IMG/VR virus record: IMGVR_UViG_2585427740_000001
Source: a virus
Lineage: Duplodnaviria; Heunggongvirae; Uroviricota; Caudoviricetes
DNA: 23,852 nt
Reading direction: 5' to 3' (one strand)
Positions 17,277 through 23,852 of the stretch are shown here, in pieces (position 1 is the stretch's first letter; each line of letters opens with the position of its first letter). Below the pieces are notes generated by a model that saw nothing but the letters and a program-made list of their open reading frames with translations, was not told where the DNA came from and searched no databases. Made by a program: the position numbers and the translations under genes.

Positions 17277-17286
17277 TGGGGTGAAT

Positions 17287-20250
17287 ATGGCAGTAAAGAT
17301 TTCAGGTGTACTGAAAGACGGCACAGGAAAACCGGTACAGAACTGCACAATCCAGCTGAAAGCAAAACGTAACAGCACCGCGGTGGTGGTGAACACGCTG
17401 GCCTCAGAAAATCCGGATGAAGCCGGGCGTTACAGCATGGACGTTGAGTACGGTCAGTACAGCGTTATTCTGTTGGTGGAAGGATTCCCGCCGTCACATG
17501 CCGGGACCATCACCGTGTATGAAGATTCCCGACCCGGTACGCTGAATGATTTTCTCGGTGCCATGACGGAGGATGATGCCCGTCCGGAGGCTCTGCGCCG
17601 TTTTGAACTGATGGTGGAAGAGGTGGCGCGTAACGCGTCCGCAGTGGCACAGAACACGGCAGCCGCGAAGAAGTCAGCCAGTGATGCCAGCACATCTGCC
17701 AGTGAGGCGGCAACTCATACAACCGATGCTGCAGGCTCAGCTCGTGCCGCCAGCACGTCAGCCGGACAGGCTGCATCATCTGCTCAGTCAGCATCTTCCA
17801 GCGCAGGAACGGCATCAACAAAGGCCAGTGAAGCATCGAAAAGTGCTGCTGCTGCAGAGTCCTCAAAAAGCGCGGCAGCTACCAGTGCCGCTGCGGCGAA
17901 AACGTCAGAAACGAATGCGGCAGCGTCACAACAATCAGCAGCCACTTCTGCATCCGCCGCGACCACGAAGGCGTCAGAAGCTGCCACCTCAGCCCGGGAT
18001 GCGGCGGCCTCAAAAGAGGCGGCAAAATCATCAGAAACGAGCGCAGCCTCGAGCGCCAGTAGTGCAGCCTCCTCGGCAACAGCGGCAGGAAATTCCGCGA
18101 AGGCGGCAAAAACGTCCGAGACGAACGCTAAGTCTTCTGAGACGGCAGCAGCACAGAGTGCCTCCGCAGCAGCAGACTCAAAAACAGCGGCTGCCTCATC
18201 TGCCAGCGCCGCGTCAACAAATGCCGGGCAGGCCTCAGCCAGTGCCACCGCTGCCGGAAAGTCGGCAGAAAGCGCCGCATCATCCGCTTCAACAGCCACA
18301 ACGAAGGCTGGCGAAGCCACTGAACAGGCCACGGCAGCAGCGAGGTCAGCTTCCGCAGCGAAGACATCCGAAACGAACGCGAAAGCGTCGGAAACCAGCG
18401 CAGAATCCTCAAAAACGGCTGCCGCATCGTCAGCCAGTTCGGCGGCGTCATCGGCATCATCGGCGTCTGCTTCAAAAGATGAGGCGACCAGACAGGCGTC
18501 AGCAGCGAAGGGCAGCGCCACGACGGCATCCACGAAGGCGACAGAGGCAGCTGGCAGTGCGACGGCGGCAGCTCAGAGCAAAAGTACGGCGGAATCCGCG
18601 GCAACGCGCGCCGAGACAGCAGCAAAACGGGCAGAGGATATTGCATCCGCCGTGGCGCTTGAGGATGCGAGCACGACGAAAAAGGGGATAGTACAGCTCA
18701 GCAGTGCGACTAACAGCACTTCCGAGTCACTGGCGGCAACGCCAAAAGCCGTTAAGGCCGCGTATGAGCTGGCTAACGGGAAATACACCGCACAGGATGC
18801 AACGACAGCACAGAAAGGGATAGTTCAGCTTAGCAACGCGACCAACAGCACATCTGAAATGCTGGCGGCAACGCCAAAGTCGGTAAAGGCAGCCTATGAC
18901 CTTGCTAACGGGAAATATACTGCTCAGGACGCTACGACAGCACAAAAAGGAATTGTCCAGCTCAGTAGTGCAACCAACAGCGCATCTGAAACGCTTGCCG
19001 CGACACCGAAAGCAGTGAAAGCAGCTAATGATAATGCGAATGGTCGGGTACCTTCTGCCCGTAAGGTGAATGGTAAGGCGCTTTCAGCGGATATAACACT
19101 GACGCCGAAAGATATTGGTACGCTTAACTCAACAACAATGTCATTCAGCGGTGGTGCTGGTTGGTTCAAATTAGCAACGGTAACCATGCCACAGGCGAGT
19201 TCTGTTGTTTCAATTACGTTGATTGGTGGCGCGGGATTTAACGTGGGGTCACCTCAACAGGCAGGTATATCTGAACTTGTTTTGCGTGCAGGTAATGGTA
19301 ATCCGAAGGGGATTACTGGTGCTTTATGGCAGCGCACATCGACAGGGTTTACAAATTTTGCCTGGGTCAATACATCTGGTGATACTTACGATATTTACGT
19401 TGCAATCGGAAATTATGCGACTGGTGTAAATATTCAATGGGATTATACCAGTAATGCCAGCGTGACGATTCATACGTCACCAGCATATTCTGCTAATAAG
19501 CCGGAAGGGTTAACGGACGGTACAGTTTATTCACTCTATACGCCATCAGAGCAGTTTTATCCGCCTGGCGCACCAATCCCGTGGCCATCAGATACCGTTC
19601 CGTCTGGCTATGCCCTGATGCAGGGGCAGACTTTTGACAAATCTGCATACCCGAAACTTGCAGCCGCTTATCCGTCAGCCGTGATCCCTGATATGCGTGG
19701 CTGGACGATTAAGGGCAACCCCGCCAGTGGTCGTGCCGTATTGTCTCAGGAACAGGACGGCATTAAATCGCACACCCACAGCGCCAGCGCATCCAGTACG
19801 GATTTGGGGACGAAAAACACATCGTCGTTTGATTACGGAACCAAATCCACGAATAACACCGGGGCGCATACCCATAGTATTAGCGGGACTGCAAATAGTG
19901 CCGGTGCGCACCAACACAAGAGTTCCGGTGCATTTGGTGGCACGAACACGAGCATTTTCCCTAATGGTTATACCGCGATTTCAAATCTAAGCGCGGGGAT
20001 TATGAGCACAACAAGCGGTAGTGGCCAGACTCGTAATGCAGGGAAGACATCATCAGATGGTGCTCATACCCACTCGCTGTCCGGCACTGCTGCAAGCGCA
20101 GGCGCACATGCACATACTGTCGGTATTGGTGCTCATACGCACTCCGTTGCGATTGGCTCACACGGACACACCATCACCGTTAACGCTGCTGGTAACGCGG
20201 AAAACACCGTCAAAAACATCGCATTTAACTATATTGTGAGGCTTGCATAA
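17287..20250 (+). CDS. stf: Side tail fibre protein Stf (about 987 aa from ATG 17287), with long Ala/Ser/Thr-rich low-complexity region, three ~43-aa tandem repeats and a His-rich C-terminal domain
   Basis: N-terminus [30 protein letters not shown]... and C-terminus ...[11 protein letters not shown] match lambda Stf as recalled. ORF-track ORF begins 2 codons upstream at GTG. Confidence 0.92.
18673..19050 (+). repeat. Three tandem ~129-132-nt repeats inside stf (unit encodes [19 protein letters not shown](S/M)[12 protein letters not shown](E/D)[11 protein letters not shown])
   Basis: Repeated peptide and nucleotide blocks starting near 18673, 18802 and 18934, read directly. Confidence 0.8.
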
Positions 20251-20831
20251 TGGCATTCAGAATGAGTGAACAACCACGGACCATAAAAATTTATAATCTG
20301 CTGGCCGGAACTAATGAATTTATTGGTGAAGGTGATGCATATATTCCGCCTCATACAGGTCTGCCAGCAAACAGTACCGATATTGCACCGCCAGATATTC
20401 CGGCTGGCTTCGTGGCTGTTTTCAACAGTGATGAGTCATCGTGGCATCTTGTTGAAGACCATCGGGGTAAAACAGTTTATGACGTGGCATCAGGGGACGC
20501 GTTATTTATTTCTGAACTCGGCTCATTACCGGAAAATGTTACCTGGTTATCCCCGGAAGGGGAGTTTCAGAAGTGGAACGGCACAGCCTGGGTGAAGGAT
20601 ACGGAAGCAGAAAAACTGTTCCGGATCCGGGAGGTGGAAGAAACAAAAAACAGCCTGATGCAGGTAGCCAGTGAGCATATAGCGCCGCTTCAGGATGCTG
20701 TGGATCTGGAGATCGCAACGGAGGAAGAAACCTTGTTGCTGGAAGCCTGGAAAAAGTATCGGGTATTGCTGAACCGTGTTGATACGTCAACTGCACAGGA
20801 TATTGAATGGCCAGTAGCACCTATAGGGTAA
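20250..20831 (+). CDS. tfa: Tail fibre assembly chaperone Tfa
   Basis: 193-aa translation [51 protein letters not shown]... matches lambda Tfa as recalled. ATG overlaps the stf stop. Confidence 0.95.
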
Positions 20832-21689
20832 ATTCGTAATGATTACCTAAATACGTTATTCTTTTGTTCAAAAAGTGATTTTGCTATAGATAGGGAGTAT
20901 GTTCTTGGATTAAGAATAAAAATCGCCATGAAAGAGCTTCATGGCGAGTACATAAACGTACAAAATGTGATGAAAGTAGAGTGGCGTAAGCCACTATATT
21001 AAGATGTGACAATAGCGAAGAAAAGTAAATAACATTTTATGGACGTTTAATTGTTAATTATAAAAACTAGAGTGCCCGATATTGTTTACCTTGCTTTAAA
21101 ATAATGTACTCAAACCAAATTTTTGAGCTAAAAGCTCAAATAATATAAATGCAATAATAATGTTTAATAAGACAATTAGCTTGCTTTGTATTTTCATTTC
21201 GGAATACTGTTAAGTAACTTTGATGACCCTAACAATAGATCGGAATTTTCTTAGAGTCAATGGTCACTGTTTTTGCTTGCAAAGCAAATGTTTTGGTGGT
21301 TATAAGTTGTCTTAATATAGTCACGCATGCAACTTGTTCCATGCGGAGATTAAAGATTGGAATATAACGCTAAGATGGAATTAAATTACATTTGCAATAA
21401 TCAATTTATTATTACTCAATAATTACCGATATTATTATTGTAAATTAATCATTAGAGTGCAAAAAGAAATGTAACGGCAAAATAAGAGGACGATAGCTGA
21501 GAAAAAAGCGTGCTTTCCCAATCTGGGGCAAATCACGTCTGAATGACACCTGAAAACAGGTGGTAGCCTCAAGAAGGCTTGGAATATTCTTCTTTAATGT
21601 TATGTAATTCATTGATTTTTCGTGTACGATTTAAAGACATTTATTCCAAGAAAAATTTTTAACTCTTTGATTTTTCGACTCTGTATCAT

Positions 21690-21751
21690 CGGTCTCGAAA
21701 ACCGGAGTAGGGGCAACTCTACCGGGGGTTCAAATCCCCCTCTCTCCGCCA
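21690..21751 (+). other. 3' fragment (~62 nt) of tRNA-Ser(CGA): anticodon stem-loop, variable arm, T-arm and acceptor 3' end with CCA; 5' half absent
   Basis: CGGTCTCGAAAACCGGAGTAGGGGCAACTCTACCGGGGGTTCAAATCCCCCTCTCTCCGCCA matches the recalled 3' portion of E. coli serU-type tRNA-Ser. The preceding sequence cannot form the acceptor/D arms. Confidence 0.75.
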
Positions 21752-22335
21752 CTTTATCAATGACTTATCTCCCGACTTCCCGCCTTGCTTTTCCTAAACA
21801 GAACAATCGTAGAATATTCTTGAAGGGTTAGATCGTCACTGTTTTCTGTTCGATACTGTGACATTCAGCACTTGATTCGCTATGGATCTGACAGGAAGGT
21901 TTTGAGCGAAAATTTGCAGTTATTCAGTCGTTTTCTTATCGGTCACCATTATTCTTTTAGACATTGATCCTACAAAGCTGCCGCAAAGTTGGTGGTGGGA
22001 ACTGAAGTTGCGTAGAGAAGGGGTCAATACCCGGAGGCAAACATGGGCTGGCAAAAGTGTAGCGGTATTAGGCGCAGCTATTTAGCCTAGTTATGTTTTA
22101 TGAAAACTTGATATCATATAAGTGTCTTACTTATTGGCTGTAAATAAGTTTTTCCTAAGGAATTGTTTCTTGAGTATCATTTGTAACTGTAACGGAATTT
22201 ATAATCCTTTGCTTTATTGTTACGGTATTTTTTATCACACCCTATTTTTTATGTGGTTTTTTATACTGAAGTTTGGCAAAGTGAACTTTATATGCATATA
22301 CTTCATCCTGGTTTCAGTTAAGTTGGGTGGATGAT

Positions 22336-23079
22336 ATGGCAACTACATGTTCAGTTATATTGATTTTGGAGTCCTTTGATGTTTATTTCGGAAAAGAGAG
22401 TGTGTTTCTGGAGAGAGGTTCATCTGTACTTGTCGACTCTAGCTCTAGAGATTTTTTCCTGACATATCCTGAAAGAGTGATAGTGGCGGATTTTGGCGCT
22501 GAGTTTATTAGTCGCTATTTGAAAGCTAATAACTTAAGGGATATTTCTGATTGTAGGGAATATCCATCTTATTTAAAAATAAACTTTGCTGACTTCAGTT
22601 TAATTAAAGGATTAATTAGTTGGGCTAATCACTGTGCTGAATACATAGAAATTTTTGATGAGTCTATTGCTTTTACATGTCTCTCTGCATTTTCTTCTGA
22701 AAAACAATTTGGAGTATTTCTGTTTGAATGTTTGAAAAGCACAGGGGCTAAAGTTAAAACGATTATTCATACGGATTTATCTGCACCATGGCGTCTTAAG
22801 GATATATCATCAAGATTATATCTCAGCGAAAGTTTACTAAAGAGGAAATTGAAAGAAGAGGGGGTATCATTCAGTAAGATCATACTTGATGAGAGGATGC
22901 AAATGGCTGAATATTTACTCAGCACTCGTTGTTATCCTATTAGTAAAGTAGCTAAGGTCTGTGGTTATGCCAGTGTCTCATACTTTACTTATGTATTTAG
23001 ACGTTATTTTGGTGTTTCTCCAAGTCAATACTCTCAGAGCAGTTCAGAAAGTAAAATTCTTACTCACCAGGGAATCTGA
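22336..23079 (+). CDS. AraC/XylS-family transcriptional regulator (AppY/EnvY-like), about 247 aa
   Basis: C-terminal AraC-type HTH signature (...WRLKDISSRLYLSESLLKRKLKEEGVSFSKIILDERMQMAEYLL...KVCGYASVSYFTYVFRRYFGVSPSQY). Low-GC gene; in-frame GTG 3 codons upstream is the ORF-track start. Confidence 0.85.
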   Translation: MATTCSVILILESFDVYFGKESVFLERGSSVLVDSSSRDFFLTYPERVIVADFGAEFISRYLKANNLRDISDCREYPSYLKINFADFSLIKGLISWANHCAEYIEIFDESIAFTCLSAFSSEKQFGVFLFECLKSTGAKVKTIIHTDLSAPWRLKDISSRLYLSESLLKRKLKEEGVSFSKIILDERMQMAEYLLSTRCYPISKVAKVCGYASVSYFTYVFRRYFGVSPSQYSQSSSESKILTHQGI

Positions 23080-23590
23080 TCATTGTTCTTGCCCCCTTAT
23101 TTCCAGACAGGGGGTGTATCTTAAGTTAACGTTACCCGCTGACGTCGATATTCTCGCGGAGAGCGATAACCCAACGCACTGTGCGGATGGTTTTCATTGT
23201 AATGTTCGATCGCCACTGCAAGATTATGCAATGCCGTTCTTACATTCGGTTTCGGCATGAACGCGATGTAGTCTTCCTTCATCGTTTTCACGAACCTTTC
23301 TGCCATTCCATTACTCTGAGGACTGCTGATTGCCGTTGTGCAGGGCTCCAGATTCAACTCTCTGGCGAACTGCCATGTTTCATGCGCTCTATACGCTGAA
23401 CCGTTATCTGTCAGCCACTGGATGGACTGTTCCGGTACTTTATCGCCAAAGCGTTTTTCTATCGCTCCTAACATGACATCCTGCACTGTCGCTTTATCGT
23501 AACCTCCCGTGCTTGCGGCCCAGTCTATGGCTTCACGATCGCAACAGTCCAGGGCGAACGTAACACGCAGTTTTGAATCGCCACGGGTTT
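23077..23590 (-). mobile_element. IS2-like (IS3 family) element fragment: terminal region plus 3' part of the transposase orfB
   Basis: Terminal sequence TTGCCCCCTTATTTCCAGACA resembles the recalled IS2 end. The orfB C-terminal translation matches IS2 InsD as recalled (...TVQDVMLGA...WLTDNGS.Y...[12 protein letters not shown]). Confidence 0.7.
23121..23585 (-). pseudogene. IS2-like transposase orfB, C-terminal ~155 codons only (5' part removed)
   Basis: ORF-track ORF 23121-23486 continues open upstream to a TAA at about 23586 (…[34 protein letters not shown]…). No orfA or N-terminal orfB upstream on this strand. Confidence 0.75.
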
Positions 23591-23630
23591 AACAGACACC
23601 TCAGAGTCATTTAAGATGGCTTAAAGAGAG

Positions 23631-23852
23631 GTGCCCATGAGCGGTAAGCGTTATCCCGAAGAGTTTAAAACTGAAGCAGTCAAACAGGTTGTTGATCGCG
23701 GTTATTCTGTTGCCAGCGTTGCAACACGTCTCGATATCACCACCCACAGCCTTTATGCCTGGATAAAGAAGTACGGTCCGGATTACTCCACTTTTTCATC
23801 AAGCCAATCCGCCCACCACTGCATCATTTCTCTGCGCTTATCGAGATACTGA
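23631..23852 (+). CDS. IS3-family transposase OrfA-like HTH protein (N-terminal part typical; C-terminus atypical, possibly disrupted)
   Basis: MSGKRYPEEFKTEAVKQVVDRGYSVASVATRLDITTHSLYAWIKKYGPD resembles IS3-family OrfA HTH domains. RBS AGAGAGGTGCCC-ATG. Opposite orientation to the IS2-like orfB fragment. Confidence 0.6.
   Translation: MPMSGKRYPEEFKTEAVKQVVDRGYSVASVATRLDITTHSLYAWIKKYGPDYSTFSSSQSAHHCIISLRLSRY

Follow-up and report, generated by a model that had tools for sequence, protein, structure and literature searches.

A probable YncL-like small gene and an apparent fossil serU attachment site in the AT-rich start of a lambda-like phage b region

The AT-rich interval that directly follows tfa in the window, by which we mean the whole 23,852-nt stretch of viral DNA analysed here, is probably the first 860 bp of a lambda-like b region, composed of a moron-type unit with a YncL-like gene, a linker and a fossil attR. 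We give this reading a probability of roughly 0.65. Within it, a 33-codon ORF is probably a real small gene with a YncL-like product, which the first-pass annotation overlooked because only ORFs of at least 60 aa were considered there.

Results

Mosaic structure of the interval

Features of the interval and its surroundings (positions in the window):
17281-20250: stf, the side-tail-fibre gene
20250-20831: tfa, preceded by stf
20832-21689: the interval, directly after tfa
20832-21408, minus strand: module A, an accessory unit linked to tfa, running leftward and convergent with tfa; 30.3% G+C
21409-21494, no strand assigned: linker, b region of the ev099/mEp332 type
21495-21689, plus strand: module C, phage-side arm of a serU-integrating lambdoid prophage, with half of an old att site
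21690-21751, plus strand: 3′ 62 nt of the tRNA-Ser(CGA) gene serU (tRNA positions 29-90), the att core
21752-22029, plus strand: 278 bp of E. coli chromosomal DNA from just downstream of serU

The interval has a G+C content of 30.9%, compared with 47.8% for tfa and 54.7% for stf, and its largest internal ORF is 55 aa long (minus strand, 21612..21445), in agreement with the earlier description of an AT-rich stretch of about 860 bp without an ORF of 60 aa or more. A 69-aa GTG ORF starts at 21622 and extends past the interval across the tRNA fragment; no ORF of at least 60 aa lies fully within 20832-21689, and the RefSeq records inspected annotate no feature there. The 55-aa ORF, which is annotated in phage ev099, was rejected as a gene because it straddles the 21494/21495 junction of unrelated modules, and a 37-aa ORF (21342..21229) was rejected because its start codon is missing in other copies.

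A nucleotide search against prophages, as proposed in the first-pass annotation, returned b-region matches in free phages and, through BLAST of the window against related loci, resolved the module boundaries: the interval is a three-part mosaic. Module A follows tfa in four downstream contexts, namely the att-lambda b region, prophages at the Qin site (ydfJ) and two sitABCD lineages. Two of these contexts independently place the end of its homology at 21408, and another places it at 21376. The linker is present in loci L004, L005 and L006, and BLAST found it in neither the Qin-site context, the sit-adjacent contexts nor the serU prophage. Module C, which contains the AT-rich inverted repeats I1 and I6, is 97% identical to EC958 DNA lying between tail-fibre genes and a serU fragment, and the same holds for many other strains.

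Genomic setting and distribution

For prophages that occupy the lambda attachment site, one expects to find the b region at the bio-side end. The order in strain RM10410 is tfa, AT-rich stretch, AraC-family gene, IS3-family fragments and ybhB-bioA, and this locus is the bio-side end of such a prophage. Loci 100% identical to the interval adjoin ybhB-bioA, and among the matches listed the interval is 100% identical in 22 complete E. coli chromosomes. The free phages ev099 and mEp332 have tfa, the AT-rich stretch, the serU fragment, the AraC gene, the IS fragments and int in this order at ~99% identity; the whole layout also occurs, likewise at ~99% identity, in the free phage PhiR70_1, and in all three phages the order continues into int and xis. 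Because free phages carry the identical order at ~99% identity, the interval belongs to the b region of functional phages and is not debris. The earlier suggestion of a decayed b-region remnant was therefore right about the region and wrong about the decay. The module is carried by only 4 of 50,697 phage records, and 827 of 5426 complete E. coli genomes (15%) contain its 161-nt RNA-like part, at 95-100% identity.

Further to the right in the window lies an AraC-family regulator gene (22327-23079, plus strand, ~33% G+C), b-region cargo that is also present in free phages. IS3-family fragments at 23121-23852 end the b region before the attachment site; the minus strand carries a truncated integrase-core ORF, and a transposase orfA starts on the plus strand. 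IS1 has inserted in the region in at least two events. It stands in place of window positions 21580-22129 in strain E166 (L004 5750-6517), and in an IMG/VR contig (L062 12582-12979) IS1 insB directly borders the terminator described below on its 5′ side, with the RNA element and the small gene gone; this contig had been considered as alternative cargo with a common terminator and turned out to be an IS1 insertion. In the urine isolates Sx181 and BH100 (L009, L010), the sitABCD iron/manganese transporter operon lies directly after the tfa-linked module and is transcribed toward it. Phage ev099 (L063) has an nmpC/lc-type porin gene at 42428-43510 (minus strand), between Q and the lysis genes, an arrangement familiar from PA-2 and DLP12.

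A fossil serU attachment site

The 340 bp at 21690-22029 are 97.4% identical to the K-12 chromosome (L060 4530-4191), and the free phages ev099 and mEp332 carry this serU block too. ARAGORN detected no complete tRNA in the window. Extended leftward to include module C, the segment 21495-22029 matches the attR of EC958 at 97%, and from this order of parts it can be read as a fossil attR. Since the phages that host it integrate elsewhere with another integrase, the serU attR would be a relic of imprecise excision, and we infer that a serU-integrating ancestor excised imprecisely and later swapped its integration module. Attachment sites in tRNA genes are well known, as are imprecise-excision scars of the specialised-transduction type. 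An earlier proposal had the stretch as the end of a separate integrated island; the right quarter does come from a serU prophage arm, but the boundary belongs to a fossil attR and not to a current island.

A 33-codon ORF related to YncL

Features of the leftward unit in module A:
21096-21197, minus strand: 33-codon ORF including the stop codon, predicted to encode a YncL-like small membrane protein (MKIQSKLIVLLNIIIAFILFELLAQKFGLSTLF)
21232-21260, minus strand: predicted sigma-70-like promoter, TTGACT-17 nt-TATTGT (consensus scan, 9/12 matches)
20913-20947, minus strand: Rho-independent terminator, stem 20947..20923 followed by the U-tract TTTTTATTCT
20977-20998, minus strand: hairpin 1 (noted at first reading as AGTGGC-GTAA-GCCACT, here taken on the minus strand; repeat I9)
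20913-21036, minus strand: RNA-like element, a candidate 3′ UTR of the small gene and/or sRNA, based on a weak MicC alignment, its fold and its conservation

A small-ORF check, which the first-pass annotation had also put forward, recovered the 33-codon ORF at 21197..21096. Its product matches the NCBIfam profile NF000537 (YncL) over profile positions 1-28 of 30 (E = 1.3e-5), with a score of 25 bits that lies below the curated equivalog cut-off of 35 bits. BLASTP against K-12 YncL aligned 28 residues without gaps, 11 of them identical (39%) and 18 positive (64%), at E = 2e-7, and ten columns are invariant with YncL (M1, S5, L10, N12, A16, L19, F20, L22, F27 and G28). Neither Pfam nor PHROGs gave a match for the ORF. 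The phage ORF is a paralogue of YncL at most.

The most diverged copy, that of Sx181, is 77% identical over module A, and its ORF differs from that of the window at 18 nt, which cause just 5 residue changes. The differences fall 7, 1 and 10 times at codon positions 1, 2 and 3, respectively, and the stop codon is retained across a 5-nt indel. In a simulation with the number and type of changes held equal to those observed, 0.025% of 20,000 runs were as good (P = 0.00025). The small number of residue changes thus points to coding selection on the ORF, in a test that draws mainly on one diverged lineage (Sx181, L033) and on an ORF family of low diversity. The close variants of the ORF show 5 synonymous and 2 non-synonymous changes. 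Pattern and profile scans of IMG/VR recovered ~50 loci, all closely related, and two scans of species-representative genomes gave no further relatives. A tblastn search of the phage collection gave no match and also missed the known ev099 and mEp332 copies, for which low-complexity filtering is the probable cause. A Shine-Dalgarno sequence is absent before the ATG (CAGTATTCCGAAATG), whereas K-12 yncL has one. Searching the literature for the peptide string returned no match.

Promoter-like site and terminator

The promoter-like sequence TTGACT-17-TATTGT is located 35 nt upstream of the ORF. TTGACT is invariant and the −10 box reads TATTGT or TATCGT across all aligned copies. Matches to the promoter consensus are not enriched (5 found, against 6.1 expected in shuffles), and 21260..21232 may drive the small gene. 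Further upstream, 55-95 nt from the −35 box of the small gene, a second island of conservation at 21315-21355 has 38 of its 41 positions in common with the Sx181 copy that is 77% identical overall. It shows no coding potential, with start-codon loss or indels in other copies, and may serve as a site for a regulator or as a divergent plus-strand promoter (TTGGTG-17-TATAGT, 21293-21321).

Downstream, ~150 nt separate the stop codon of the ORF from the terminator. Its 10-nt arms (20923-20932 and 20938-20947) are 100% complementary around a 5-nt loop in the repeat search, and the terminator scan gives 11 pairs and a 3-nt loop. The scan detected two terminator-like sites in 1.7 kb, where shuffles gave 0.7 +/- 1.0. 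The stem is invariant across 14 variants, with an apical pair that is either G-U or A-U. This hairpin and hairpin 1 are the two that had been noticed at first reading, and both lie where they were placed. The T-rich minus-strand tail ascribed to the first is the U-tract listed above, and the hairpin has a terminator-like score; the second had been called perfect, and its 9-nt arms (20977-20985 and 20990-20998) are 89% complementary. Module A is built like a moron, with a promoter-like site ahead of a selected ORF and a structured tail that leads to a terminator.

A conserved structured element ahead of the terminator

When the 129 nt at 20908-21036 were folded and compared with shuffled sequences, z was −4.7 on the minus strand and −6.6 on the plus strand; the consensus fold of the RNA-like element has 20 pairs. 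The 5′ third of the element is variable and the 3′ two-thirds are conserved; no part of module A is better conserved than the 3′ half of the element. Positions 20930-21002, which cover hairpin 1, the terminator and the U-rich spacer ahead of it, have 93% identity to the copy whose overall identity is 77% (P = 2e-4), so that relative to Sx181 this non-coding 73-nt island (93%) is more conserved than the ORF (80%). The high identity of the island may reflect a recombined patch instead of selection. The element is non-coding on both strands because frameshifting indels and a T5/T6 tract break the frames. A plus-strand 24-aa ORF (20928..21002) and a minus-strand 42-aa ORF (21012..20884) were rejected as genes on these grounds, and the changes in both are mostly non-synonymous.

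Hairpin 1 carries one-sided changes, C>U in 3 sequences and A>G in one (L061), after which the bases are paired only as G-U and only in minus-strand RNA. These changes, like those in the apical pair of the terminator, preserve pairing through G-U and weakly favour a function as minus-strand RNA. No compensatory double changes occur in the element among the variants aligned. Its 3′ part may also act as a regulatory RNA.

An independent small RNA as an alternative

MicC and MicF are porin-regulating, Hfq-dependent sRNAs. The ~125-nt element (21036..20913) might likewise be an independent base-pairing sRNA of the Hfq type and of the MicC/MicF kind, with its own promoter, regulating a host mRNA such as that of a porin serving as phage receptor. 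We consider this alternative doubtful, and it would be compatible with the YncL-like unit if the RNA had a dual function. The Rfam model of MicC (RF00121) aligns end to end with the minus strand at 21036..20910, including the 5′ motif UGUUAU...UAUUGUCACAU and the terminator, but its score is 22.5 bits where the gathering threshold is 90 (E = 2.1 when 1.9 kb is searched and 0.29 when 271 nt are), and the MicC-like motif differs between copies. A covariance model built from 14 variants (R1, alignment A3) had as its best match in 40 kb of K-12 DNA a genuine sRNA, MicF, again end to end, yet at E = 1.5, and on the micC locus itself (L007) it gave no match at E <= 10. The −10-like sequences TATAAT and TAAAAT lie just upstream of the element (TACAAT and AAAAAT in the diverged copy), though a convincing −35 box was not found, and a U-rich spacer ahead of the terminator and its U-tract also suits an sRNA. 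Likewise, a conserved 3′ end combined with a differing 5′ part, as seen here, is found in PasA and PasA-2, whose 5′ 40 nt differ (PMC13192938).

Pairing analysis argues against this alternative. Between the 5′ region and the ompC leader the pairing energy is −15.9 kcal/mol, with a shuffle mean of −16.2, whereas the MicC control reaches −32.0 kcal/mol with the same leader, a value attained in 0/500 shuffles. Queries made of the conserved core and of the 5′ part found no target that beat shuffles among the start regions of ompC, ompN, K-12 yncL, stf, tfa and the araC-like gene or in the whole ev099 genome; one slightly better target site is antisense to the tRNA relic. With a score below the gathering threshold, no reciprocal match, ompC pairing at shuffle level and a varying motif, membership of MicC was rejected. 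The element was also set apart from svsR, which is located at the 3′ end of cI, and from PasB, since the window does not contain its probe sequence AATCCCGCAGTGATCGCGGAGCT. Rfam gave no matches to AgvB, AsxR, Esr41, STnc100 or DicF, and we found no MicC-like or tfa-linked prophage sRNAs in the literature. Of the earlier idea that the stretch hosts an sRNA there remains a conserved, structured and terminator-ended candidate; a match at the Rfam threshold and a target did not emerge. An Rfam match to IS009 (RF02111, 218 bits) at 20593-20791 on the plus strand lies wholly within the tfa coding sequence and is probably conserved tfa DNA, not an sRNA; IS009 is reported to be enriched around the prophage sRNA PasB (2026 preprint, PMC13192938).

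A combined proposal, in which the leftward transcript is a dual-function RNA that encodes a YncL-type peptide and carries a new Hfq- or ProQ-binding riboregulator in its conserved 3′ part, we regard as rather unlikely. It includes the suggestions that the 3′ part would be released or act in place, and that the variable 5′ portion would retarget it between phage lineages.

Inert DNA and toxin-antitoxin readings

It is improbable that the interval is inert, decaying b-region DNA in which the hairpins are terminators or chance and the small ORF is spurious. The DNA is AT-rich and has repeatedly received IS1, its right quarter is truly a non-functional scar, and no gene is annotated in the RefSeq records inspected. 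In a set of 15 billion predicted proteins, moreover, the exact peptide occurs on a single contig for each variant, which shows that the ORF is overlooked by annotation pipelines. Against inertness, the codon-position pattern and the simulation reject neutrality of the ORF, its similarity to the YncL small-protein family is significant, the 73-nt non-coding island is conserved above the ORF, and 95-100% identity is maintained in 15% of complete E. coli genomes, with further copies in plaque-forming phages.

Type I toxin-antitoxin pairs are frequent in prophages; known pairs include hok/sok, ralR/ralA and zorO/orzO. It is highly improbable that the small hydrophobic peptide is such a toxin with a nearby RNA as its antitoxin: the protein is a 33-aa single helix and its relative YncL depolarises the membrane and lowers viability (PMC12542507), but the RNA-like element pairs with the ORF 5′ UTR and start region worse than shuffles do and lacks complementarity to them, no direct repeat of at least 12 nt hints at a complementary divergent antitoxin, the 5′ UTR is just ~28 nt long where type I toxin mRNAs typically have a long structured leader, and YncL is not classed as a toxin of a toxin-antitoxin system.

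Discussion

Under the preferred reading of a moron-type YncL-like unit, a prophage at the gal-bio attachment site would carry the interval, and the promoter predicted at 21260..21232 would drive a leftward transcript of ~310 nt. This transcript would encode a 33-residue single-helix inner-membrane peptide (21197..21096), run on through ~150 nt of structured RNA and end at the terminator (20947..20913) that abuts the end of tfa. In the lysogen, production of the peptide would probably not depend on the late operon. Production of YncL partly dissipates the membrane potential, triggers the phage-shock response and reduces viability (PMC12542507), and by analogy the phage peptide would probably modulate membrane energisation, with partial loss of potential and phage-shock induction. 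Such a membrane effect could aid stress tolerance or hinder superinfecting phages. Since YncL depolarises the membrane and the phage copy lies beside receptor-binding fibre genes, the unit is a candidate for lysogenic conversion or superinfection interference.

If correct, this reading adds an unannotated small gene, in a module carried by ~15% of complete E. coli genomes and by plaque-forming lambdoid phages, and the non-coding island beside it is a candidate prophage sRNA. The apparent fossil serU attR suggests that functional phages can retain imprecisely excised host DNA and then switch integration site. Were the transcript a dual-function RNA, a unit for lysogenic conversion directed at the receptor or the envelope would be physically linked to the side-tail-fibre genes. 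Neither the YncL-like gene, the RNA island nor the fossil attR alters a general principle.

Comparison with known systems

The RNA-like element resembles MicC and MicF in its length of ~110-125 nt and in its layout, where an unstructured 5′ part leads into an internal hairpin and a U-rich spacer ahead of the terminator; its 5′ motif partially resembles that of MicC, and MicF is the best reciprocal match in 40 kb. It is unlike them in scores far below threshold, the lack of ompC complementarity, a different genomic context and an unconserved 5′ part. With prophage sRNAs (PasA-D, svsR, AgvB/AsxR, DicF) it shares an intergenic position near structural genes of lambdoid prophages and an end at a terminator. 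The order of phage arm, 3′ part of the tRNA and host flank is that of the attR of serU prophages such as EC958, but unlike an active serU attR it is now enclosed in a b region, and the phages concerned use another integrase to insert at the lambda site.

YncL (b4598) is a 31-aa stress-induced inner-membrane protein of E. coli K-12, similar to the predicted phage peptide in length and layout. In both, a short polar N-terminus that contains S5, with a basic residue next to it at position 6, precedes a single hydrophobic helix with a central Asn (LLN or LIN), and the C-terminus has a [KR]FG motif. K-12 yncL lies between patD and ortT, whereas the phage ORF lies between tfa and b-region cargo; there is no DNA-level similarity outside the coding part or in the flanks, and on its 3′ side the phage ORF, unlike YncL, has a long stretch of conserved and structured sequence behind it.

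Phage morons are self-contained promoter-gene-terminator insertions in the late and b regions of lambdoid phages; lambda lom and bor and HK97 gp15 are reportedly among the examples given by Juhala, Hendrix and colleagues. Module A likewise has its own terminator and promoter-like site, a G+C content of 30% against 48-55% in tfa and stf, a position between phage modules and an orientation against the late operon, and related phages differ in whether they have it, with varying neighbouring cargo. Classical moron proteins are much larger than its peptide. YncL-type small membrane proteins, phage morons and att-site relics are all kinds already known.
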